Source: a phage. From it: DNA of 64,000 nt. Both the position numbers and the translations under genes were made by a program. Positions 48,156 through 64,000 of this stretch are shown here, piece after piece. Each line of letters starts with the position of its first letter. The first letter of the stretch is position 1. Location: sequence record PZ019086.1; one strand, written 5' to 3'. The notes under the pieces are model-generated. The model made no database searches. It worked only from the letters and a program-made list of their open reading frames with translations, and had not been told where the DNA came from.

Positions 48156-48231
48156 TGGTCGAGGCAGTAGGGATCGAACCTACGACCTAGGACTTAGAAG
48201 GTCCTTGCTCTTCCTTCTGAGCTATGCCTCG
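48156..48231 (-). tRNA. tRNA-Arg (anticodon TCT), CCA encoded
   Basis: Manual cloverleaf: acceptor CGAGGCA/TGCCTCG, anticodon stem AGGAC/GTCCT, loop CTTCTAA, T-loop TTCGATC. Confidence 0.8.
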
Positions 48232-48235
48232 GATT

Positions 48236-48310
48236 TGGCGGACGTGATAGGATTCGAACCTATAACCAATCGCTTAACAGGCGATCGCTCTGCCATTGAG
48301 CTACACATCC
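48236..48310 (-). tRNA. tRNA-Asn (anticodon GTT), CCA encoded
   Basis: Manual cloverleaf: acceptor GGATGTG/CACGTCC (one G-U), D-stem GCTC/GAGC, anticodon stem ATCGC/GCGAT, loop CTGTTAA, T-arm ATAGG-TTCGAAT-CCTAT. Confidence 0.75.
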
Positions 48311-48314
48311 AAAT

Positions 48315-48401
48315 TGGTGGGGAGTGATGGAGTCGAACCACCCGAGTCGCAATGACAATGGATTTACAGTCCACACCGCTACCTCTACGGGATAACTCCC
48401 C
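48315..48401 (-). tRNA. tRNA-Tyr (anticodon GTA), long variable arm, CCA encoded
   Basis: Manual cloverleaf: acceptor GGGGAGT/ACTCCCC, anticodon stem GTGGA/TCCAT, loop CTGTAAA, long variable arm, T-loop TTCGACT; architecture parallels E. coli tRNA-Tyr. Confidence 0.7.
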
Positions 48402-48414
48402 TTAATTCTTAATT

Positions 48415-48489
48415 TGGTGGCCCTGGGTGGAATTGAACCACCATCTGGCGATTATGAGTCGCTTGCTTGAACCTTCCAGCTACAGGGCC
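48415..48489 (-). tRNA. tRNA-Ile (anticodon CAT, presumably lysidine-modified), CCA encoded
   Basis: Acceptor GGCCCTG/CAGGGCC, anticodon loop CTCATAA; Ile assignment follows T4 precedent, Met cannot be excluded from sequence alone. Confidence 0.7.
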
Positions 48490-48490
48490 T

Positions 48491-48566
48491 TGGTGCTGAT
48501 TGACGGAATCGAACCGCCGACCTTCTCATTACAAGTGAGTTGCTCTACCTACTGAGCTAAATCAGC
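48491..48566 (-). tRNA. tRNA-Thr (anticodon TGT), CCA encoded
   Basis: Acceptor GCTGATT/AATCAGC, anticodon stem ACTCA/TGAGA, loop CTTGTAA. Confidence 0.8.
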
Positions 48567-48571
48567 AAAAC

Positions 48572-48661
48572 TGGCGGAGGCGATAGGATTCGAACCTATG
48601 AGTCGCTGGAGCGACTGCCGGTTTTCAAGACCGGTGCATTAAACCACTCTGCCACGCCTCC
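48572..48661 (-). tRNA. tRNA-Ser (anticodon TGA), long variable arm, CCA encoded
   Basis: Acceptor GGAGGCG/CGCCTCC, anticodon stem CCGGT/ACCGG, loop CTTGAAA. Confidence 0.8.
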
Positions 48662-48663
48662 AG

Positions 48664-48737
48664 TCTCCGTGGCAGGATTTGAACCTGCGACATTCTGCTC
48701 CCAAAGCAGACGCTCTACCAAACTGAGCTACACGGAG
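48664..48737 (-). tRNA. tRNA-Pro (anticodon TGG), CCA not encoded
   Basis: Acceptor CTCCGTG/CACGGAG, anticodon stem TCTGC/GCAGA, loop TTTGGGA. Confidence 0.8.
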
Positions 48738-48747
48738 TAAATTAAAT

Positions 48748-48821
<74 letters not shown>

Positions 48822-48826
48822 AAATT

Positions 48827-48913
48827 TGGTGCGAGAAGTGGGACTCGAACCCACAAGGAAATCATTCCGCAGCATTTTAAGTGCTGTGCCTTTACCAATT
48901 TGACCATTCTCGC
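48827..48913 (-). tRNA. tRNA-Leu (anticodon TAA), long variable arm, CCA encoded
   Basis: Acceptor GCGAGAA/TTCTCGC, anticodon stem CAGCA/TGCTG, loop CTTAAAA. Confidence 0.8.
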
Positions 48914-48914
48914 G

Positions 48915-48987
48915 CTGGGAATAAAGGACTCGAACCTTTGCATCTAGCAGTCAAAGTGCTATGCCTTACCAACTTGGCTAATTCCCA
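48915..48987 (-). tRNA. tRNA-Gln (anticodon TTG), CCA not encoded; abuts tRNA-Leu (dimeric precursor)
   Basis: Acceptor TGGGAAT/ATTCCCA, anticodon stem TAGCA/TGCTA, loop CTTTGAC; boundaries consistent with ORF-track coordinates in this region. Confidence 0.8.
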
Positions 48988-51590: not shown

Positions 51591-52303
51591 TATAGTACCT
51601 TTAGTGTATTTTTAATTTTAGAAAAAAGTTCTTCAAGAGAACCATCGTTTGTAATTACTAAATCGCCATCACGAATTGGCAATCCAGCTTCTGTAATATG
51701 AGTATCATTGGATTTTTGACCAGGACGAACTACATGAATTACTGTAGCACCCATCGCCCTAGCCGCATCCATTTCATGGTCTTGACGAGTATCAGGAACG
51801 ATATAATAATCATAACCTGAGTTAAATTTATCAAGATAATCTAAAGCAAATAATTTTACCCAATACATGCGGTCGAAGTTATTAACAATCAAATCCGTAC
51901 CTAGGGCTTGCATCAGACGACGGACTGACCATTGATCTTCAATATTATTTATAACGTCAATAATCTTGTTAAATGCTACGAAATTAACTGCGTCATCAAA
52001 AACACACACACCCTTAATTGGGCTTTTACTATTAAGATAGCAAAATGCTTGTTCCATAATCGTAATTACTTCTAATTTAGTCAGATTTAAATTAGTCTCG
52101 CGATCATAGTCAATTCCTTCAAACTCTTTACGAGTTAAACAAGGATAGTCAGTGTTTGCTACGAATACGCCCCATGCATAAGCCAATGCATCTTTAATAG
52201 GACCAGCAAGTTGATATTTAACTGCAGAATAATTATTCATGATAAAATCTGCGGTAGTATCTTTTCCACTACGCTTTACACCACTTAAAAAGATTAGTTT
52301 CAT
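51590..52303 (-). CDS. 1: Deoxynucleoside monophosphate kinase
   Basis: 237 aa; P-loop MKLIFLSGVKRSGKDT. Confidence 0.9.
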
Positions 52304-52352
52304 ATGTTTCTCCTCAAATTTAGTTAAGATTATAACACATGAAACTTAAGCA

Positions 52353-52883
52353 TTAAACTTCTGCTATAATTTTGCCATCTTTTTCTACTTGAAAATACGT
52401 ATAAGGAATCGTTGCTGTGCATACTAAGGCTGGGTCTGAATCTTCTGTGTAGCTAAATTCTACTTCAGACAGGTCAGAAACCCAGGGCTTATAAAAATTT
52501 ATTGACATCACGATTTCAGTTTTACTATTATCTAAAATGTAAAGCGTAATGTATTCAGGACCTGTTTTTTGGGCAGTATTTTCGCCTGTAAGATAGTTAC
52601 TAGTTCCTAGCATCCATTCATACATTCCTATCCACGACTTAAGCTCTTCATCAACTATAAATCTCACAATGAGTGGGTCGTACTCAAATGTAACTCCTGG
52701 ACGCTGTGCTCGGCCTAGTCCAAACGGCCCAGTCACGGTATCAGTAACAGGTATCCTAATTCCCGGAATAGGAACTGACTGAGCATTTAAAGTAAAAGCA
52801 GATGTAGTATTACTATGCGGTATTGATACTACAAAGTTAGTTGTATTTGCTTGGTTAAAAATTTGTTGTAGTGCTTGCGACAT
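52353..52883 (-). CDS. 3: Tail sheath stabilizer / tail completion protein gp3
   Basis: Start moved to ATG at 52883 (MSQALQQIFNQANTT..., 176 aa as T4 gp3) with GAGGAA RBS. Confidence 0.85.
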   Translation of the reverse strand: MSQALQQIFNQANTTNFVVSIPHSNTTSAFTLNAQSVPIPGIRIPVTDTVTGPFGLGRAQRPGVTFEYDPLIVRFIVDEELKSWIGMYEWMLGTSNYLTGENTAQKTGPEYITLYILDNSKTEIVMSINFYKPWVSDLSEVEFSYTEDSDPALVCTATIPYTYFQVEKDGKIIAEV

Positions 52884-52989
52884 ATATTCCTCATAATGCT
52901 TTATAAATGTTGGTGGTATAATGGGTCTAAGTCCCTTCCATTCAATTCCAATTAGAACAAACAATAGAAAAGAATGGAAGATAATAGAA

Positions 52990-53814
52990 TTAGATATTTG
53001 ACCAGACTTTGTTTGCAGAGAAACGTTTTCCTTTTGAAACGAACTGCTGAAGTGGCATTAACACAACGTTCGCCCAGTCTTTCGGGGCGATTTCAACAAG
53101 ACTACCCATGATATTACCAGGTATATATGCCTTAATCATTTGGTCTGCACCCCTAAATCCTTTCACTTGACTCCAATCAATTTTTAATTTCGTTTTATTA
53201 GTAATAGTAGGTGTATTCGAATATTGCTTTAAAAGCTCTTCTAGAAATTGCTGACGAGCTTTAGGTGGAATATAGTGCAAGTTCAATCCGTACATTAAAT
53301 TATGTTTACCTAAACCAAGATAAATTATCAAAGGAAATTTATCCCAGTAAGGAAGAGTTTCCTTGTGTTTAGCATCATAAGCAAAAGCATATATTCGTCC
53401 CGGCTGAGGGCGAACAACTTTATGTCCTTTTACTTGCTTAATAGTTTCAGCAAACCACTTTCTGGTTTTATTATTAATTGCTGCGCCTTCATTACGAATT
53501 TTATCACGCAATGTTTGCCTGAATGAATTTATCATAAGCAGTTGTCTTTCTTGCTTATTGAGTTTATTCATTGGTTTTGATTCAAGCTTTTGAATCTTTT
53601 CAGCTGTTTTAATTCCTGAAGCATATTTTGACATTGCCGAAGTAAACGTAGAGTATTTGATTCCTCTTACTTCGGCAAATTGCTTTCCTGTCATTCCTTT
53701 TGCTTTGGCCTTTTTGTATTCAAGACCTATCTGAATCCATTTCTTTTCGTTTAATGATTGCTTAACCTTTGGAACTTGGGGAGTGCTTTCATTAATTATT
53801 TGAAAAATAGCCAT
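52990..53814 (-). CDS. 2: DNA end protector protein gp2
   Basis: 274 aa as T4 gp2; overlaps gene 4 stop. Confidence 0.85.
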
Positions 53815-54266
53815 TATGCCCCCTTAAAGCCAAGAGCCCGTAATCCATCTTCTGTTAGAATTCTAAATTTTATTCCACGCTTTTCAGCTAAAGATTGTGC
53901 TGCTTTCCATTTGTCAGTATTAACAGAATATGTATAAATTTCATTCATAAATCTTTTCTTCGCTGCTGTTGTTAGATGTGCTGGTTTAACTGGTGGTTGT
54001 GTTTCTTTTTTAGGTTTTATTTCAATAAAAAATTCTTGTCCAGAAGAATCTTTCATCCAAATATCCATGAAGTATCTACGTTTTTTCCCTTCTGCATTAC
54101 AAAAATAAGGAATTACTGCTGTTTCACTACCCCATGCAATAATTTCTGGATTTTTATCTAACCATTCAAAAAAGAATTTTTCCCAATTTGATCTATACGT
54201 AATTTTTTTAGGGTCACCTCTATATTTTGATATATTTTTAGGAACCCATTTTCCAGAATATGCCAT
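53814..54266 (-). CDS. 4: Head completion protein gp4
   Basis: 150 aa as T4 gp4. Confidence 0.85.
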
Positions 54267-54277
54267 TGGATTCTCCT

Positions 54278-54285
54278 TATAAATA
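54278..54285 (+). promoter_or_regulatory. T4 late promoter TATAAATA for gene 53
   Basis: TATAAATA about 29 nt upstream of the 53 ATG; approximate. Confidence 0.55.
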
Positions 54286-54290
54286 GATAA

Positions 54291-54298
54291 TATATTTA
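54291..54298 (-). promoter_or_regulatory. T4 late promoter TATAAATA for gene 4 (divergent from the gene 53 promoter)
   Basis: Minus-strand TGTTTATAAATATATT about 25 nt upstream of the gene 4 ATG; approximate. Confidence 0.5.
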
Positions 54299-54313
54299 TA
54301 AACAGGAGGGCCC

Positions 54314-54904
54314 ATGCTCTTTACATTTTTTGATCCGATTGAATATGCGGCCAAAACAGTGAATAAAAACGCGCCGACTATTCCTATGACAGATATTTTT
54401 AGAAACTATAAAGACTATTTCAAACGTGCTCTTGCGGGATACCGCTTACGCACTTATTATATCAAAGGTTCACCACGCCCGGAAGAATTAGCAAATGCTA
54501 TATATGGAAATCCACAGTTGTATTGGGTTTTATTGATGTGTAATGATAATTATGATCCGTATTATGGATGGATTACTTCGCAAGAAGCTGCTTATCAAGC
54601 ATCTATACAAAAATACAAAAACGTAGGTGGAGACCAAATAGTATATCATGTGAATGAGAACGGTGAAAAATTTTATAATTTAATATCATACGATGATAAT
54701 CCATATGTTTGGTATGACAAAGGCGATAAAGCTAGAAAATATCCTCAATATGAAGGAGCACTTGCTGCGGTCGATACGTATGAAGCTGCTGTTCTTGAAA
54801 ATGAAAAACTTCGTCAAATAAAAATAATAGCAAAATCAGACATCAATTCATTTATGAACGACCTTATACGTATAATGGAGAAATCTTATGGAAATGATAA
54901 GTAA
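54314..54904 (+). CDS. 53: Baseplate wedge protein gp53
   Basis: 196 aa as T4 gp53; ATG preceded by GGAGGG. Confidence 0.9.
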   Translation: MLFTFFDPIEYAAKTVNKNAPTIPMTDIFRNYKDYFKRALAGYRLRTYYIKGSPRPEELANAIYGNPQLYWVLLMCNDNYDPYYGWITSQEAAYQASIQKYKNVGGDQIVYHVNENGEKFYNLISYDDNPYVWYDKGDKARKYPQYEGALAAVDTYEAAVLENEKLRQIKIIAKSDINSFMNDLIRIMEKSYGNDK

Positions 54905-56660
54905 TAACCTTAATTGGTTTGTTGGTGTTGTTGAAGATAGAATGGACCCATTAAAATTAGGTCGCGTTCGTGTTCGTGTTGTTGGTCTGCATCCACCACA
55001 AAGAGCACAAGGTGATGTAATGGGTATTCCAACTGAAAAATTACCATGGATGTCAGTTATTCAACCTATAACTTCTGCAGCAATGTCTGGAATTGGAGGC
55101 TCCGTTACTGGTCCGGTAGAAGGAACTAGAGTTTATGGTCATTTTTTAGACAAATGGAAAACTAACGGAATTGTTCTTGGCACGTATGGTGGAATAGTTC
55201 GCGAAAAGCCTAATAGGCTTGAAGGATTTTCTGACCCAACTGGACAGTATCCTAGACGTCTAGGAAATGATACTAACGTATTAAACCAAGGCGGAGAAGT
55301 AGGATATGATTCGTCTTCTAATATTATCCAAGATAGCAATCTAGACACTGCGATAAATCCCGATGATAGACCACTATCAGAAATTCCAACTGATGATAAT
55401 CCAAATATGTCAATGGCTGAAATGCTTCGCCGTGATGAAGGATTAAGACTAAAAGTTTATTGGGATACTGAAGGATATCCGACAATTGGTATTGGTCATC
55501 TTATCATGAAGCAGCCAGTTCGTGATATGACTCAAATTAATAAAGTTTTATCAAAACAAGTTGGTCGTGAAATTACCGGAAATCCAGGTTCTATTACAAT
55601 GGAAGAGGCGACAGCTTTATTTGAACGCGATTTGGCTGATATGCAACGTGACATTAAATCACATTCTAAAGTTGGCCCAGTTTGGCAGGCAGTTAATCGT
55701 TCTCGTCAAATGGCATTAGAAAACATGGCATTTCAGATGGGTGTTGGTGGTGTAGCTAAATTTAACACAATGTTAACTGCTATGTTAGCAGGAGATTGGG
55801 AAAAAGCATATAAAGCTGGTCGTGATTCATTGTGGTATCAACAAACAAAAGGCCGTGCATCCCGTGTTACCATGATTATTCTTACGGGAAATTTGGAATC
55901 ATATGGTGTTGAAGTGAAAACACCGGCTAGGTCTTTGTCAGCAATGGCTGCTGCTGTAGCGAAGTCTTCTGATCCAGCTGACCCTCCTATTCCTAATGAT
56001 TCGAGAATTTTATTTAAAGAACCTGTTTCTTCATATAAAGGTGAATATCCATATGTTCACACAATGGAAACTGAAAGCGGTCATATTCAGGAATTTGATG
56101 ATACCCCTGGGCAAGAACGATACAGATTAGTTCATCCGACTGGAACATATGAGGAAGTATCACCGTCAGGAAGAAGAACAAGAAAAACTGTCGATAATTT
56201 GTATGATATAACAAATGCTGATGGTAATTTTTTGGTAGCCGGTGATAAAAAGACTAACGTCGGTGGATCAGAAATTTATTACAACATGGATAATCGTCTT
56301 CACCAAATAGATGGAAGCAATACAATATTTGTGCGTGGCGACGAAACGAAAACTGTTGAAGGTAATGGAACTATCCTAGTTAAAGGTAATGTTAAAGTAG
56401 TTATTCAAGGAACAGCAGATATAACTGTTGAACAGGAAGCATACATAACTGTTGAAAAAGACACGACTGTTAATGTTAACCAAAACGCAGACATAAGTGT
56501 TAAAAATAAAGCAACTGTTAATGCTGAAAATATGGATGTCAACGTTGAGCAAGATTTAAATTTTTCAGCGACAAATATTAATTTAAGTGCATCTAATACT
56601 GTTCATATGGATGGCGGGGTTCTTTCTAAAGTATCAGGTGGAAACGTACAGGTTGGTTAA
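54888..56660 (+). CDS. 5: Baseplate central spike with tail lysozyme domain gp5
   Basis: 590 aa; OB-fold N-terminus, lysozyme domain MAEMLRRDEGLRLKVYWDTEGYPTIGIGHLI, C-terminal beta-helix repeats (VKGNVKVVIQG...). Confidence 0.9.
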   Translation: MEMISNNLNWFVGVVEDRMDPLKLGRVRVRVVGLHPPQRAQGDVMGIPTEKLPWMSVIQPITSAAMSGIGGSVTGPVEGTRVYGHFLDKWKTNGIVLGTYGGIVREKPNRLEGFSDPTGQYPRRLGNDTNVLNQGGEVGYDSSSNIIQDSNLDTAINPDDRPLSEIPTDDNPNMSMAEMLRRDEGLRLKVYWDTEGYPTIGIGHLIMKQPVRDMTQINKVLSKQVGREITGNPGSITMEEATALFERDLADMQRDIKSHSKVGPVWQAVNRSRQMALENMAFQMGVGGVAKFNTMLTAMLAGDWEKAYKAGRDSLWYQQTKGRASRVTMIILTGNLESYGVEVKTPARSLSAMAAAVAKSSDPADPPIPNDSRILFKEPVSSYKGEYPYVHTMETESGHIQEFDDTPGQERYRLVHPTGTYEEVSPSGRRTRKTVDNLYDITNADGNFLVAGDKKTNVGGSEIYYNMDNRLHQIDGSNTIFVRGDETKTVEGNGTILVKGNVKVVIQGTADITVEQEAYITVEKDTTVNVNQNADISVKNKATVNAENMDVNVEQDLNFSATNINLSASNTVHMDGGVLSKVSGGNVQVG

Positions 56661-56661
56661 T

Positions 56662-58698
56662 ATGAATTATAACGAAATTGTTGATGAATTAGTTGATACC
56701 ATACAATCAGCTTGTTCAATTATTCCCGAAGGTTATTATAGACGAGTTAAATGGGAATTATACAATCCCAATAAAGAAATGATTCAACCCGATAATGGGG
56801 TTGAATGGGACACTGAAATTATTAAATTAGATACCCATCTTTACACCGAAAATCCATTTGGTCATTCTTCTGATACATTTACTGAATCATCTGATGGAGA
56901 AACCCAAACTGGTGTTTTTTGTCATAAAATCGGCGTGTATTTTCCAACTCAAACTGCGTTAGAAGATTACGTTGAACAAATTGGTGCAACTTTACTTCCA
57001 GGTAATACTTGGTATGGTGCTGATTTATCGAAACGTGAATTTTTTAAAACTGAAATTGAATATGATATGTATCGCATTGAAAATCGCGGAGGTACATGGC
57101 ATCATACGGGTCCTAGAATAGATGCTAGGACAATGATCGGTGTTAACAATGACTATACAATGTATGTTAACTTTAACGGTTTAGGAGATTATCGAAGAGC
57201 ATATTTAAAATATTATGAAGATAAACCATGCACATATGTCGGTTTAACACTAAATTTAAATATAGATACATCAATTCCCGGTATTCCTTATTCACCTCCA
57301 TCAATTATTGGAGAGCTTCCACTTAATGCAATTTCATGCGTTAATTTTACTGCCCAATTTCCATACAATGGCTTAACAACTGCAATTATTGAGGCTTGGA
57401 ACACCTCAAGAGATTCATTTAAACTATATTGGGATATGTTGCCTGGTATGCCGGCAATTAGCGGAAGTGATTTTGAAAAATATTTTAATTCGGCATATAC
57501 ACATTTATCTGTAGCAATGGAAGAGCTTGGAAATTCGGCAATTGCCATGTGTCAATATGTTCAGCAACAAGCCTTTATGGTTTTTAAAAATTCTGTTTCA
57601 CAAGTTCTAAATATTGTCGGTGGCGGATGGGATTTATTAAAAAGTTTTTTACCTAAAATAACAATAATGGGCATATCTATTGATATTGAAGATTTATGTA
57701 CATCAACAGATGGTGTTCAAAAATTGAAGGAAACCTTTGAAAATTTTAATCTGGAAGATACTATTAGTTCAATTTATTCTGCAATGGGTTCTGCATATGA
57801 CTATTCTATAGAACGCGTTAAAATGTATTCGCGGGATTTAATTGATGCAATAACAGATTTATATGATTGGGCCTGGTCAAAATTAATGATGGCCGGTGTC
57901 GCTTTATCAAAATTATGTGTTGATTTAGCACAAATCTGGAGCATGCCACCAATTATTCCAAATCCAGTGTGGTCTGTTATCACTTTAGTGAAGGAAATGA
58001 TGAAACAAATTCCTCCATTAGATATGATTATGTCAGGTAATTTTCCTGGATTTACTGCTTCTGATGTATATCAGATGGTTATGTCTATCGTATCTGAAAA
58101 AATTAAACAAGTTTATACTGAAATAGAATCATTAAAAACCCAAGCATTGGATGTATGGAATGAAATTAAACTAAAAACACAGGAATATAAAAAGCAAACG
58201 ATTGAATTTAAACAATATTTATCAGGAATGGCTGAAAAGGTTGAAGATGAAATAACTATAGCAAAAAAGAAAGCGTTACAAGAAGCTGAATCCGCTTTAA
58301 ATGTTTTAAAGGATAAATATAACAGTATTAAAGACTTGATAAAAAATAAACAGATTTCTGTGTCTGATGTATTAGATTTAGCTTTGACTGAATTTCGAAA
58401 AATTCCATTAATTTCACAAATGGAATCATTATTATCTTTAGCTGGAGCATCTATCGATGATATAATGAAAGTATATGAAAATAGCGTTACTAAAGCAAAA
58501 TCATTATATCACGAATTCACCGATGGCGCTCGGTCAATGAAAGATCTATGCAAATCATTATACAATCAAATTTCGACTTTATGTTTGAGTAAGGTTGTGC
58601 AATGGATTAATAAAATGCTTGGAATATTTGGATTAAGTATTACATTTCCAACAGTATCAATATGCATTCCATGCTTAAAAACTCCTATGAGGAATTAA
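56662..58698 (+). CDS. Large uncharacterized protein between baseplate genes 5 and 6
   Basis: 678 aa from ATG 56662 (MNYNEIVDELV...), directly after the gene 5 stop; C-terminal half helical/coiled-coil with hydrophobic stretches; no motif I can recognise; the track's upstream extension overlaps gene 5. Confidence 0.7.
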   Translation: MNYNEIVDELVDTIQSACSIIPEGYYRRVKWELYNPNKEMIQPDNGVEWDTEIIKLDTHLYTENPFGHSSDTFTESSDGETQTGVFCHKIGVYFPTQTALEDYVEQIGATLLPGNTWYGADLSKREFFKTEIEYDMYRIENRGGTWHHTGPRIDARTMIGVNNDYTMYVNFNGLGDYRRAYLKYYEDKPCTYVGLTLNLNIDTSIPGIPYSPPSIIGELPLNAISCVNFTAQFPYNGLTTAIIEAWNTSRDSFKLYWDMLPGMPAISGSDFEKYFNSAYTHLSVAMEELGNSAIAMCQYVQQQAFMVFKNSVSQVLNIVGGGWDLLKSFLPKITIMGISIDIEDLCTSTDGVQKLKETFENFNLEDTISSIYSAMGSAYDYSIERVKMYSRDLIDAITDLYDWAWSKLMMAGVALSKLCVDLAQIWSMPPIIPNPVWSVITLVKEMMKQIPPLDMIMSGNFPGFTASDVYQMVMSIVSEKIKQVYTEIESLKTQALDVWNEIKLKTQEYKKQTIEFKQYLSGMAEKVEDEITIAKKKALQEAESALNVLKDKYNSIKDLIKNKQISVSDVLDLALTEFRKIPLISQMESLLSLAGASIDDIMKVYENSVTKAKSLYHEFTDGARSMKDLCKSLYNQISTLCLSKVVQWINKMLGIFGLSITFPTVSICIPCLKTPMRN

Positions 58699-58699
58699 A

Positions 58700-60679
58700 A
58701 TGACAACTCCTGTAAATTATCAATTAACAAGAACAGCAAATGCTATTCCCGAGATATTCGTCGGGGGTACATTTGCTGAAATAAAACAAAACCTCATTGA
58801 ATGGCTTAATGGTCAAAATGAATTTTTGGATTATGATTTTGAAGGCTCAAGATTAAACGTTCTGTGCGACCTTTTGGCTTATAATACATTATACATTCAG
58901 CAGTTTGGTAATGCTGCCGTGTATGAAAGCTTTATGCGTACTGCTAATTTGCGTAGTTCAGTAGTTCAAGCGGCACAAGATAATGGATATTTACCTACTT
59001 CAAAATCAGCTGCTCAAACTGAAATTATGCTAACTTGTACAGATGCATTGAATAGAAATTACATTACTATTCCTCGTGGTACTCGCTTTTTAGCATATGC
59101 AAAGGATACTTCCGTTAATCCTTACAACTTTGTATCTACCGAAGATGTTATTGCTATTCGCGATAAAAATAACCAATATTTTCCGCGTTTAAAATTGGCC
59201 CAGGGACGTATAGTAAGAACTGAAATCATTTATGATAAATTAACGCCTATTATCATTTATGATAAAAATATTGATAGAAACCAGGTTAAATTATATGTTG
59301 ATGGAGCGGAATGGATTAACTGGACGAGAAAGTCAATGGTTCATGCTGGTTCAACATCAACGATTTACTATATGCGTGAAACTATTGATGGAAACACTGA
59401 ATTCTATTTTGGTGAAGGTGAAATTTCTGTTAATGCGGCAGAAGGAGCATTGACTGCTAATTATATTGGGGGTCTTAAACCTACCCAGAACTCTACGATT
59501 GTTATTGAGTACATCAGTACTAACGGTGCAGATGCGAATGGCGCAGTCGGATTTTCATATGCAGATACATTAACAAATATAACTGTCATCAACATTAATG
59601 AAAATCCAAACGATGACCCAGATTTTGTTGGGGCAGATGGCGGCGGTGATCCAGAAGATATTGAACGTATTCGCGAATTGGGTACTATTAAACGCGAAAC
59701 CCAGCAACGCTGTGTAACTGCGACTGACTATGATACATTCGTTTCAGAGAGATTTGGTTCTATTATTCAAGCAGTTCAGACTTTCACTGATTCTACTAAA
59801 CCTGGTTATGCATTTATTGCTGCTAAACCTAAATCAGGGTTGTATTTAACTACTGTACAGCGCGAAGATATTAAAAATTATCTCAAAGACTATAATTTAG
59901 CTCCTATTACACCGTCAATTATTTCTCCTAATTATCTTTTTATTAAGACTAATTTAAAAGTCACATATGCTTTAAATAAGCTGCAAGAATCCGAACAGTG
60001 GCTCGAAGGTCAAATAATTGATAAAATTGATCGTTATTATACCGAAGATGTAGAAATTTTTAACTCATCTTTCGCTAAATCTAAGATGTTGACATATGTA
60101 GATGATGCAGATCATTCTATCATTGGTTCATCAGCGACAATTCAAATTGTTCGTGAAGTACAAAACTTCTATAAAACGCCTGAAGCAGGTATTAAATACA
60201 ATAATCAAATAAAAGATCGTTCTATGGAATCTAATACGTTTTCATTTAATTCTGGACGAAAGGTTGTAAATCCTGATACTGGTTTAGAAGAAGATGTATT
60301 ATATGACGTTCGCATAGTATCAACAGACCGAGATTCTAAAGGAATTGGTAAAGTTATTATTGGTCCATTTGCTTCTGGCGATGTTACAGAAAATGAAAAC
60401 ATTCAGCCGTATACAGGCAACGATTTTAACAAATTAGCAAATTCTGATGGACGCGACAAATACTATGTTATCGGTGAAATAAATTATCCAGCTGATGTGA
60501 TTTATTGGAATATCGCTAAAATTAATTTAACATCTGAAAAATTTGAAGTTCAGACTATTGAATTATATTCTGACCCAACCGATGATGTTATCTTTACTCG
60601 CGATGGTTCGCTGATTGTATTTGAAAATGACTTACGTCCACAATACTTAACTATCGATTTGGAGCCTATATCACAATGA
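58700..60679 (+). CDS. 6: Baseplate wedge protein gp6
   Basis: 659 aa (T4 gp6 660 aa); position. Confidence 0.85.
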   Translation: MTTPVNYQLTRTANAIPEIFVGGTFAEIKQNLIEWLNGQNEFLDYDFEGSRLNVLCDLLAYNTLYIQQFGNAAVYESFMRTANLRSSVVQAAQDNGYLPTSKSAAQTEIMLTCTDALNRNYITIPRGTRFLAYAKDTSVNPYNFVSTEDVIAIRDKNNQYFPRLKLAQGRIVRTEIIYDKLTPIIIYDKNIDRNQVKLYVDGAEWINWTRKSMVHAGSTSTIYYMRETIDGNTEFYFGEGEISVNAAEGALTANYIGGLKPTQNSTIVIEYISTNGADANGAVGFSYADTLTNITVININENPNDDPDFVGADGGGDPEDIERIRELGTIKRETQQRCVTATDYDTFVSERFGSIIQAVQTFTDSTKPGYAFIAAKPKSGLYLTTVQREDIKNYLKDYNLAPITPSIISPNYLFIKTNLKVTYALNKLQESEQWLEGQIIDKIDRYYTEDVEIFNSSFAKSKMLTYVDDADHSIIGSSATIQIVREVQNFYKTPEAGIKYNNQIKDRSMESNTFSFNSGRKVVNPDTGLEEDVLYDVRIVSTDRDSKGIGKVIIGPFASGDVTENENIQPYTGNDFNKLANSDGRDKYYVIGEINYPADVIYWNIAKINLTSEKFEVQTIELYSDPTDDVIFTRDGSLIVFENDLRPQYLTIDLEPISQ

Positions 60680-63600
60680 CAGTAAAAGCACCTTCAGTCA
60701 CTAGTCTCAGAATTTCCAAGTTATCCGCAAATCAGGTGCAAGTACGCTGGGATGACGTTGGTGCTAATTTCTACTATTTTGTAGAAATCGCTGAGACAAA
60801 AACAAACTCGGGGGAAAATCTCCCGAGTAATCAATACAGATGGATTAACTTAGGATATACTGCAAATAACAGCTTCTTTTTTGATGATGCTGACCCATTG
60901 ACATCATACGTTATTAGAGTAGCTACAGCTGCACAAGATTTTGAGCAGTCTGATTGGATTTATACCGAAGAGTTTGAAACTTTTGCTACAAATGCTTATA
61001 CATTTCAAAACATGATTGAAATGCAATTAGCCAATAAATTCATTCAGGAAAAATTTACTCTTAATAATTCTGATTATGTCAATTTTAATAATGACACCAT
61101 AATGGCTGCATTGATGAATGAATCGTTCCAATTCAGCCCGTCATATGTTGATGTTTCATCAATAAGTAATTTTATTATTGGTGAAAATGAGTATCATGAA
61201 ATACAAGGTTCTATTCAGCAAGTATGTAAGGATATTAACCGAGTTTATTTGATGGAATCAGAAGGGATTCTATACCTTTTTGAGCGTTATCAACCTGTAG
61301 TTAAAGTATCCAATGATAAAGGACAAACTTGGAAAGCTGTAAAGCTCTTCAATGACCGCGTAGGATATCCTTTATCTAAGACAGTATATTACCAATCTGC
61401 GAACACAACATACGTTCTAGGATACGACAAGATTTTCTATGGCCGCAAATCTACTGATGTTAGATGGTCAGCTGACGATGTCAGATTTAGTTCTCAGGAT
61501 ATAACATTCGCTAAACTTGGCGACCAATTACATTTAGGATTTGATGTAGAAATTTTTGCCACTTACGCAACTTTGCCAGCGAATGTATATCGCATTGCAG
61601 AAGCTATTACTTGCAACGATGATTACATTTACGTTGTCGCCAGAGACAAAGTTAGATACATAAAAACGAGCAATGCACCTATAGATTCTGATCCATTATC
61701 TCCAACATATTCGGAAAGGCTTTTTGAACCTGATACAATGACTATAACCGGAAATCCTAAAGCAGTATGCTATAAAATGGATTCTATCGGTGATAAAGTT
61801 TTTGCTCTTATTATTGGTGAAGTTGAAACACTAAATGCTAATCCTAGAACATCAAAAATAATTGATTCTGCTGATAAAGGAATATATGTTTTAAATCATG
61901 ACACAAAAACATGGAAAAGAGTTTTTGGCAACACTGAAGAAGAAAGAAGACGTATTCAACCAGGGTATGCGAATATGTCAACTGATGGTAAATTAGTTTC
62001 TCTATCATCGAGTAATTTTAAATTTTTAAGTGATAATGTTGTTAATGACCCTGAAACTGCCGCAAAATATCAGTTAATCGGTGCCGTTAAATATGAATTT
62101 CCTCGTGAATGGTTAGCTGATAAGCATTATCATATGATGGCATTTATAGCAGATGAAAAGTCTGATTGGGAAACTTTTACTCCTCAGCCGATGAAATACT
62201 ACGCTGAACCATTCTTTAACTGGTCTAAAAAATCTAACACACGTTGTTGGATAAACAACTCTGATAGGGTTGTAGTAGTTTATGCTGATTTAAAATACAC
62301 TAAAGTTATAGAAAATATTCCTGAAACATCACCAGATAGATTAGTTCATGAATACTGGGATGATGGCGATTGCACTATAGTAATGCCAAATGTTAAATTC
62401 ACTGGATTTAAAAAATATGCATCTGGGATGCTTTTCTATAAAGCCTCTGGCGAAATAATTTCTTACTATGATTTTAACTATCGTGTTAGAGACACTGTCG
62501 AAATTATTTGGAAGCCAACTGAAGTATTTTTAAAAGCATTTTTACAAAACCAAGAGCATGAAACTCCTTGGTCGCCTGAAGAAGAGCGTGGATTAGCTGA
62601 CCCTGATTTAAGACCGTTGATTGGCACAATGATGCCTGATTCTTATTTGTTACAGGATTCGAATTTTGAGGCATTTTGCGAAGCATATATTCAATATCTT
62701 TCTGATGGATATGGAACCCAGTATAACAATTTACGAAATTTAATTCGTAACAAATATCCACGAGAAGAGCATGCATGGGAATATTTGTGGTCAGAGATAT
62801 ATAAAAGAAACATTTATTTAAATGCTGACAAACGTGATGCTGTTACAAGATTTTTCGAATCACGTAGCTATGATTTTTATTCTACTAAAGGAATTGAAGC
62901 ATCATACAAATTTCTTTTTAAAGTTCTTTATAATGAAGAGGTTGAAATTGAAATTGAATCTGGGGCTGGTACTGAATATGATATAATCGTTCAATCTGAT
63001 TCTTTGACCGAAGACTTAGTAGGACAAACGATTTATACAGCTACAGGAAGATGTAATGTTACTTATATAGAAAGAAGCTATTCTAATGGTAAATTGCAAT
63101 GGACCGTAACTATTCATAATCTTTTGGGAAGATTGATTGCCGGTCAAGAAGTTAAAGCAGAAAGACTTCCTAGTTTTGAAGGCGAAATTATTCGTGGGGT
63201 TAAAGGAAAGGATTTGCTTCAAAATAATATAGACTATATTAATAGAAGTCGATCATATTATGTAATGAAAATTAAATCCAATTTGCCTTCTTCCCGCTGG
63301 AAATCTGACGTTATTCGTTTTGTTCATCCAGTAGGATTTGGATTTATAGCAATTACTCTTTTAACAATGTTTATTAATGTTGGTTTAACTCTTAAACACA
63401 CAGAGACTATAATTAATAAATACAAAAACTACAAATGGGATTCTGGATTGCCTACTGAATATGCTGATAGAGTAGCTAAATTAACTCCAACCGGTGAAAT
63501 TGAGCATGATTCGGTAACAGGCGAGGCAATTTATGAGCCTGGCCCAATGGCTGGTGTAAAATATCCTCTTCCTGATGACTATAATGCTGAAAATAATAAT

Positions 63601-63774
63601 TCAATATTTCAAGGTCAATTGCCATCTGAACGACGTAAATTAATGAGTCCTCTATTTGATGCATCTGGAACAACATTTGCACAATTTAGAGATTTAGTTA
63701 ATAAACGTCTAAAAGATAATATAGGAAATCCAAGAGACCCTGAAAATCCAACACAGGTTAAAATAGATGAATGA
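60676..63774 (+). CDS. 7: Baseplate wedge protein gp7
   Basis: 1032 aa, identical length to T4 gp7. Confidence 0.9.
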   Translation: MTVKAPSVTSLRISKLSANQVQVRWDDVGANFYYFVEIAETKTNSGENLPSNQYRWINLGYTANNSFFFDDADPLTSYVIRVATAAQDFEQSDWIYTEEFETFATNAYTFQNMIEMQLANKFIQEKFTLNNSDYVNFNNDTIMAALMNESFQFSPSYVDVSSISNFIIGENEYHEIQGSIQQVCKDINRVYLMESEGILYLFERYQPVVKVSNDKGQTWKAVKLFNDRVGYPLSKTVYYQSANTTYVLGYDKIFYGRKSTDVRWSADDVRFSSQDITFAKLGDQLHLGFDVEIFATYATLPANVYRIAEAITCNDDYIYVVARDKVRYIKTSNAPIDSDPLSPTYSERLFEPDTMTITGNPKAVCYKMDSIGDKVFALIIGEVETLNANPRTSKIIDSADKGIYVLNHDTKTWKRVFGNTEEERRRIQPGYANMSTDGKLVSLSSSNFKFLSDNVVNDPETAAKYQLIGAVKYEFPREWLADKHYHMMAFIADEKSDWETFTPQPMKYYAEPFFNWSKKSNTRCWINNSDRVVVVYADLKYTKVIENIPETSPDRLVHEYWDDGDCTIVMPNVKFTGFKKYASGMLFYKASGEIISYYDFNYRVRDTVEIIWKPTEVFLKAFLQNQEHETPWSPEEERGLADPDLRPLIGTMMPDSYLLQDSNFEAFCEAYIQYLSDGYGTQYNNLRNLIRNKYPREEHAWEYLWSEIYKRNIYLNADKRDAVTRFFESRSYDFYSTKGIEASYKFLFKVLYNEEVEIEIESGAGTEYDIIVQSDSLTEDLVGQTIYTATGRCNVTYIERSYSNGKLQWTVTIHNLLGRLIAGQEVKAERLPSFEGEIIRGVKGKDLLQNNIDYINRSRSYYVMKIKSNLPSSRWKSDVIRFVHPVGFGFIAITLLTMFINVGLTLKHTETIINKYKNYKWDSGLPTEYADRVAKLTPTGEIEHDSVTGEAIYEPGPMAGVKYPLPDDYNAENNNSIFQGQLPSERRKLMSPLFDASGTTFAQFRDLVNKRLKDNIGNPRDPENPTQVKIDE

Positions 63775-64000
63775 TTCAAGTGTTATCTATCGTGCGATAG
63801 TTACTTCAAAATTTAGAACAGAAAAAATGTTGAATTTTTATAATTCAATTGGAAGTGGTCCGGATAAAAACACTATCTTTATCACATTTGGAAGATCAGA
63901 ACCATGGTCATCAAATGAAAATGAGGTGGGCTTTGCCCCACCTTATCCCACCGATTCTGTATTAGGTGTAACTGACATGTGGACTCATATGATGGGAACT
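63767..64000 (+). CDS. 8: Baseplate wedge protein gp8, N-terminal part (runs off window end)
   Basis: ATG overlapping gene 7 end; translation MNDSSVIYRAIVTSKFRTEKMLNFYNSIGSGPDK...; not in ORF track because truncated. Confidence 0.8.
   Translation, partial: MNDSSVIYRAIVTSKFRTEKMLNFYNSIGSGPDKNTIFITFGRSEPWSSNENEVGFAPPYPTDSVLGVTDMWTHMMGT

Follow-up and report, generated by a model that had tools for sequence, protein, structure and literature searches.

A putative large alternative spike-tip protein encoded between genes 5 and 6 of a T4-type phage and inherited in one block with the end of gp5

In phage T4, the interval between gene 5, which encodes the central spike protein gp5, and the baseplate wedge gene 6 contains 5.1, segC, 5.3 and 5.4, the last of which is annotated as a PAAR protein. 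That its product, gp5.4, contributes to fitness and to the infection of deep-rough lipopolysaccharide mutants has been established only recently. Here we describe the corresponding interval of a 64,000-nucleotide stretch of phage DNA (sequence record PZ019086.1, hereafter the window), which is filled by a single open reading frame (ORF) of 678 codons at 56662..58698 on the plus strand. A sequence-only reading had described the T4 interval as consisting of the small ORFs 5.1 to 5.4 with a PAAR-like 5.4, and inspection of the T4 locus confirmed this, with segC among them.

A different arrangement has been reported for RB43, RB16 and Lw1, which lack gene 5.4 and carry instead a gene of about 690 residues, orf205w (Mattenberger et al., bioRxiv 2025, PMC12407873). 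The RB43 baseplate map at 17.7 Å revealed a larger mass at the spike tip, into which an AlphaFold model of orf205w fits (PMC12407873). Because RB43 is without 5.4 and shows extra density at the tip, orf205w was proposed as a large spike tip, and the divergence of the RB43 gp5 tip from that of T4 had been noted earlier (PMC12407873). The homologue gp203 of Helios was modelled on the gp5 trimer by AlphaFold3 in a 2026 paper (PMC13611949). In this model, the core is a triple coiled coil, the distal tip carries a loop, and a hydrophobic contact with the last strand of gp5 is made near Ile670; the authors state that the function is not established experimentally (PMC13611949). Helical extensions beyond a phage spike tip are also found in P1, where UpfC is accompanied by a helical tripod of UpfB (as cited in PMC13611949). 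A large spike-tip family is already in the literature, with a structural role that is proposed but unproven.

The 678-residue protein belongs to this family. Its alignment with orf205w of RB43 and RB16 by tblastn yields an identity of 41.8-42.0% over 99% of its length, and the PHROG 5296 profile matches residues 1-673 with an E value of 0. Similar to RB43 orf205w, RB16p191 and Helios gp203, which have about 680-690 residues and full-length homology to it, it occupies the slot right after gene 5, consists of an N-terminal alpha/beta domain followed by an all-helical region, and is accompanied by an alternative gp5 tip, in this family diverged from that of T4 over the last 60-90 residues, and by the absence of gene 5.4. 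It differs from the RB43 family members in residing within Tequatrovirus between T4-like flanks, and it is closest to the Dhakavirus copies (72% identity). Based on the integrity of the ORF, its linkage to gene 5, its co-inheritance in a block with the gp5 end, the absence of 5.4 and its predicted architecture, together with the 17.7 Å density of RB43 and the AlphaFold docking of a homologue on gp5 (PMC12407873, PMC13611949), we propose, at a probability of roughly 75%, that the ORF product is a large alternative spike tip in the T4-type cell-puncturing device, which caps gp5 and corresponds in function to T4 gp5.4, or perhaps to gp5.1 and gp5.4 together. The suggestion of the sequence-only reading that the product is a virion-associated or ejected protein is supported by the full-length homology to orf205w, the RB43 tip density (PMC12407873) and the co-inheritance with the gp5 end. 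As T4 relatives carry a homologue with a proposed structural role, the protein is less novel than that reading had assumed; the homologue indeed lies at the same position, and its role is proposed rather than proven.

Comparison of the window with T4 DNA revealed an identity of 96% over positions 52000-56394, no relationship over 56395-58689, and again an identity of 96% from 58690 onwards. The replaced block (56395..58689, plus strand) comprises the last ~88 codons of gene 5 and the entire 678-residue ORF, and its T4 counterpart consists of the T4 gp5 tip, 5.1, segC, 5.3 and 5.4. The left breakpoint is located at about codon 502 of gp5, within the C-terminal beta-helix and just past the shared sequence ...GTILVKGNV, and the right one at the ribosome-binding site of gene 6. 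Since one breakpoint lies inside gene 5 and the other in front of gene 6, the C-terminal ~88 residues of gp5 are transferred along with the ORF. Residues 1 to ~500 of the window gp5 are ~99% identical to T4 gp5 and ~65% to that of Dhakavirus WG01, whereas the last ~88 residues, a variant beta-helix tip encoded at 56395..56660 on the plus strand and ending in ...SGGNVQVG, are ~90% identical to the gp5 of Dhakavirus WG01 and SP18 and only ~25% to that of T4. As the flanks are 96% identical to T4, the ORF was acquired by this Tequatrovirus as a recombinant block.

The same two breakpoints were found within Dhakavirus. JS98 possesses a T4-type gp5 tip (...GSRIDIG) with 5.1 and 5.4, whereas WG01 combines a ...GGNVQVG tip with the large ORF; on either side, as far as gp5 codon ~520 and from a point shortly ahead of gene 6, their sequences are ~92% identical. 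The N-terminal ~500 residues of gp5 follow the genus, and the last ~88 residues follow the tip gene. Moreover, the variant ...VQVG tip was detected in 215 phage records, with an organism breakdown identical to that of the 216 records containing the ORF.

In agreement with the earlier view that one large protein replaces 5.1 to 5.4, tblastn searches with T4 5.1, 5.3 and 5.4 detected no homologue (E<=1) either in the window or in the remaining part of the collinear and near-identical genome of phage sutha, the window plus sutha L007-L009 serving as the genome equivalent. A separate PAAR-like gene had been thought worth seeking elsewhere, and T4 5.4 found no match at E<=1 in this genome equivalent. 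The T4 5.4 query is sensitive, picking up homologues of 25-31% identity in a 2.3-Gb database that is 14,000 times larger. The exchange of the block, the co-occurrence of its two parts and the absence of T4 5.1, 5.3 and 5.4 provide genetic evidence that the spike end and the 678-residue protein belong together as a cognate pair. That the two are inherited as a match also supports, independently and on genetic grounds, their physical contact. The modular block of spike end plus tip, exchanged within Tequatrovirus and within Dhakavirus, is new here, and so are a confident model of the ORF product and the exclusion of the PAAR and tape measure identities.

Several features lie near these breakpoints or in the interval between them. 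The counterpart of T4 oriE (L002 6356) falls at about 56284 of the window, which places the left breakpoint at 56394 ~110 bp downstream of it, and origin-associated recombination might conceivably favour this junction. A minus-strand ORF at 56014-56214 spans the site that corresponds, by coordinates only, to T4 repEA. T4 carries the homing endonuclease gene segC between 5.1 and 5.3 (L002 7197-7619), and RB16 has a homing endonuclease gene between the large ORF and gene 6 (L003 7091-7768); the window interval between genes 5 and 6 is without one. Co-conversion driven by such endonucleases might account for the movement of the tip block from one co-infecting phage to another.

Homologues of the ORF were found by tblastn in 216 of 50,697 phage records, all from T4-like Straboviridae, and in 214 of these the homologue spans at least 80% of the ORF. 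The identities obtained were, among others, 72% for Dhakavirus Bp7, WG01 and SP18, 60% for KM16, 56% for Bragavirus Pm5461, 46% for Nanhuvirus S13 and LPCS28, 42% for Pseudotevenvirus RB16 and RB43, and 41% for Slopekvirus KP15. At every locus inspected, in Tequatrovirus, Dhakavirus, Bragavirus, Pseudotevenvirus, Slopekvirus and Nanhuvirus, the homologue is directly 3' of gene 5. In Cronobacter phage LPCS28 (L006 413-7055), the operon is rearranged into the order of tube cap, gp53, an extra 'tail protein', gp5 and the large ORF, which is followed by small minus-strand genes rather than by gene 6, yet the ORF still adjoins gene 5. The most distant homologue, a metagenomic one of 29% identity, lies between a gp5 fragment ending in ...GGTVSVG and gp25-gp6-gp7-gp8. 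That the homologues of LPCS28 and of this 29%-identical sequence also adjoin gp5 indicates that the ORF is linked to gene 5. An exhaustive profile search against 1.84 billion representative proteins yielded only 8 full-length clusters plus fragments, with no relatives outside the narrow phage family. The family is therefore narrow and phage-specific.

In Escherichia phage phT4A (NC_055712.1, 101438-102904), the match covers only residues 190-673 of the ORF (71%). This copy may be truncated or frameshifted, or the sequence may contain an error, and it may be the cause of the difference between 216 and 215 records. Several homologues of the ORF are labelled 'tail length tape measure protein' in GenBank (e.g. 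Roth22/23, phi1_146054), and several gp5.4 homologues are labelled 'phospholipase'; neither label was supported by domain analysis.

The plus strand of the window displays the gene order of a T4-type baseplate operon, namely gene 53 (54314-54904), gene 5 (54888..56660), the 678-residue ORF (a PHROG 5296 member of the RB43 orf205w family), gene 6 (58700..60679) and gene 7. Gene 5 encodes 590 residues comprising an OB domain, a lysozyme domain and the C-terminal beta-helix; gene 6 encodes the baseplate wedge protein, at whose ribosome-binding site T4-like DNA returns. The stop codon TAA of gene 5 (56658-56660) is separated by 1 base from the ATG of the ORF at 56662, and the ORF runs over 678 codons to the TAA at 58696-58698, 1 base before the ATG of gene 6 at 58700. 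An in-frame GTG at 56587, 75 nt upstream, would lengthen the ORF to 703 residues over the end of gene 5, which is read in another frame. However, the aligned homologues mostly start with MNY..., the remainder with MDY... or MIMDY..., and the 703-residue extension is not conserved, so that 56662 is taken as the start. A T4-type late promoter consensus TATAAATA is located upstream of gene 53 (54278..54285, plus strand). As the single exact match to TATAAATA on the plus strand of 52000-64000, it suggests that genes 53, 5, the ORF, 6 and 7 are transcribed late as one unit.

The coordinates and codons thus bear out a single uninterrupted reading frame between genes 5 and 6, as had been described. 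Disruption of the ORF in the real genome, or its fusion by assembly, had been named as a possible flaw of that description. The ORF shows an identity of at least 99% among 8 sequenced Tequatrovirus phages and was found uninterrupted at 99.3-99.9% nucleotide identity in BYEP01, sutha, SG1, PD112, JEP6, F26 and G8; an assembly artefact or a fused ORF is rejected on the basis of these intact copies and of the coverage of at least 80% in 214 of 216 phage records.

The AlphaFold2 model of the protein, built from a 58-sequence alignment, has a mean predicted local distance difference test score (pLDDT) of 87.6 and a predicted template modelling score of 0.78, in contrast to the RB43 orf205w model, which is described as low-confidence in the literature. 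The predicted architecture consists of an N-terminal alpha/beta domain, a helical bundle with a long hairpin and a conserved apex loop, and a hydrophobic C-terminal strand. The N-terminal domain has no fold match in the PDB. It is followed by a poorly conserved linker of lower confidence (residues 266-284, 57457..57513) and a conserved helical core (residues 285-465, 57514..58056), which is 86% identical to that of WG01 and includes an NFPGFTA motif at 460-466. The long hairpin (58057..58359) is composed of helices 466-520 and 529-566, the arms of which are the least conserved region of the protein; the apex and the C-terminus are conserved. The apex (residues 513-533, FKQYLSGM.E.V.DE, 58198..58260) contains Q518, Y519, M523 and T532, each conserved at 90% or more, and is a candidate distal, membrane-facing loop. 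The conserved hydrophobic C-terminus (residues 651-673, 58612..58680), with a predicted beta strand at 664-673, is a candidate gp5-docking surface; all of these segments are encoded on the plus strand. A strand at residues 224-232 is present in the full-length model and is lost if the N-terminal domain is modelled alone, hinting that it pairs with the C-terminal part.

The composition of the protein agrees in part with the sequence-only reading. The N-terminal half had been called cysteine- and aromatic-rich, and the N-terminal 280 residues are indeed aromatic-rich (14.3% F+W+Y); however, the protein is not rich in cysteine, which makes up only 11 of 678 residues (1.6%), just 4 of them in the N-terminal part. 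Two cysteines, C18 and C190, are invariant, and two more, C226 and C668, are almost invariant. A helical C-terminal half with hydrophobic segments had also been described. The helical character stands, residues 285-660 being helical in the AlphaFold2 model and the C-terminal ~390 residues being predicted as almost all helical, whereas residues 651-673 are the only clearly hydrophobic stretch (19-residue Kyte-Doolittle maximum of 1.76), with 408-426 being marginal. In accordance with the PAAR motif having gone unrecognised in the first reading, a Pfam scan of the ORF returned zero hits, PAAR included. Fold and profile searches with the whole protein gave generic coiled coils only (Foldseek best E of 0.11, TM score of 0.13), and no high-resolution structure of the family was found.

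Taking these features together, we suggest how such a tip might work. The ORF would be transcribed late with genes 53, 5 and 6 from the promoter upstream of gene 53, and it would be translated in close coupling with gene 5. Its product would then cap the blunt end of the trimeric gp5 beta-helix, docking through the hydrophobic C-terminal strand (residues 664-673) and adjacent strands of the N-terminal domain, and would recognise a cognate gp5 tip of the ...VQVG type and not of the T4 ...IDIG type. With the helical bundle and a hairpin of ~55 residues, the spike would become several nanometres longer, so placed that the conserved Y/L/M-rich apex loop might make the first contact with the outer membrane upon sheath contraction. 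Together with the spike, the tip would pass into the periplasm, where it would come off. The contact surfaces, the copy number, the contact between apex loop and membrane and what becomes of the tip after penetration are inferred.

A number of points weigh against a spike-tip role. The RB43 map has a resolution of 17.7 Å with C6 symmetry imposed, and its authors write 'possibly encoded by'; in addition, co-expression of orf205w with a gp5 beta-helix fragment failed (PMC12407873). No experiment in the literature identifies the protein of this family in any virion. Virion proteomics of carrier phages was not found, the literature on KP15/KP27 and Slopekvirus either concerning Jiaodavirus, whose members are not shown to be carriers, or containing no proteomics. 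The docking surface is deduced from conservation and from the published AlphaFold3 description of Helios gp203. Furthermore, capping may not be the only role, because 77 kDa far exceeds the size needed for sharpening a tip.

The main alternative is that so large a protein is delivered and acts on membranes, instead of or besides serving as a passive point. According to this explanation, the amphipathic, apolipoprotein-like helical bundle opens past the outer membrane and inserts into the inner membrane or engages a partner there or in the periplasm, helping to provide a route for the DNA, much as alpha-pore-forming toxins or type III translocators of the kind of ClyA, Hbl, YaxAB, AhlC and IpaB would; the N-terminal domain of orphan fold would read a component of the envelope. 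It is not mutually exclusive with a role at the tip. However, the matches that support it are generic long coiled coils, with prefoldin and designed bundles scoring as high or higher, and the Foldseek search described above was essentially empty. The only clear transmembrane-like hydropathy is at the C-terminus, where a gp5-docking strand is the simpler explanation. We therefore consider a membrane-active device, including the reading of an envelope component, to be unlikely, at odds of the order of one in eight. If it were true, the block of gp5 end and tip would be a further determinant of host range, one that operates during penetration and not during adsorption.

An assembly factor or chaperone that folds or trims the ...VQVG tip of gp5, is made late and is absent from the finished virion would likewise be expected to be tightly linked to the gp5 tip and inherited with it, and the lack of virion proteomics for carrier phages leaves room for such a factor. 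On the other hand, the spike tip of RB43 virions shows additional mass, for which the homologue can account (PMC12407873), the locus contains no other candidate gene, and T4 gp5 folds without a factor of this kind. A chaperone role thus appears improbable, and clearly more so than membrane activity.

The helical repeats also raise the question of a tape measure-like protein within the tail tube. The ORF shares with tape measure proteins (PF10145, PF20155) an amphipathic helical repeat composition at residues ~470-640; weak matches to PHROG tape measure profiles were obtained at E of ~1e-5, real tape measure proteins appeared at E of 1e-7 to 1e-3 in the exhaustive profile search, and the GenBank annotation mentioned above points the same way. 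These matches nevertheless take in only the apolipoprotein-like helical repeats of genuine tape measure proteins and are compositional, and the signature domains PF10145 and PF20155, which they miss, are absent from the ORF. In addition, near-identical sutha already encodes a separate homologue of the T4 hub and tail-length protein gp29 (CDS0025), and the gene differs in genomic position, being tied to the end of gene 5 and not to the tube or hub genes. The tape measure identity is rejected, only a very slight chance being left to it. Least probable of all is that the ORF encodes a strongly diverged PAAR-domain protein bearing a long extension, similar to type VI PAAR-toxin fusions: the genomic slot and presumably the place on the spike are those of gp5.4, and the invariant cysteines could bind metal, but the PAAR/gp5.4 identity (PF05488) is rejected given no Pfam hit, an hhalign probability of 0.1% against gp5.4 and no blast similarity, and the small conical beta fold with pseudo-threefold symmetry was not seen in the ORF, which has no PAAR fold match.

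The proposed large spike tip therefore resembles T4 gp5.4 (PDB 4KU0) in location and presumed function, and not in structure. Both occupy the slot between genes 5 and 6, both are presumed to cap the gp5 beta-helix and to require a cognate gp5 tip, and both are likely the first part of the virion at the outer membrane. However, the two share no similarity in sequence or fold, the ORF encoding 678 residues, mostly helical, and gp5.4 only 97 in a small beta-cone. Similar to the cognate VgrG-PAAR pairs of type VI systems, the gp5 tip and the ORF form a matched, exchangeable module of spike end and tip. Whereas VgrG-PAAR pairs and P1 UpfC/UpfB keep a PAAR domain, the ORF is a single non-PAAR protein that appears to do the whole job; the likeness is one by description.

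Elsewhere in the window, a compact cluster of 10 transfer RNA (tRNA) genes was observed on the minus strand at 48156-48987, comprising Arg-TCT, Asn-GTT, Tyr-GTA, Met/Ile-CAT, Thr-TGT, Ser-TGA, Pro-TGG, Gly-TCC, Leu-TAA and Gln-TTG. T4 presumably has 8 tRNAs, in which case those for Asn and Tyr would be extra in the window.

If the proposed role of the ORF as a large alternative spike tip holds, then about one in eight of the T4-like genomes in the phage collection (216 records with the ORF versus 1,422 with gp5.4 homologues) would use a different tip protein, 7 times larger. Since the block lies inside the genus of T4 itself, between flanks of 96% identity and with clean breakpoints, the function of the tip is testable by a swap in T4 genetics, a system more tractable than RB43.

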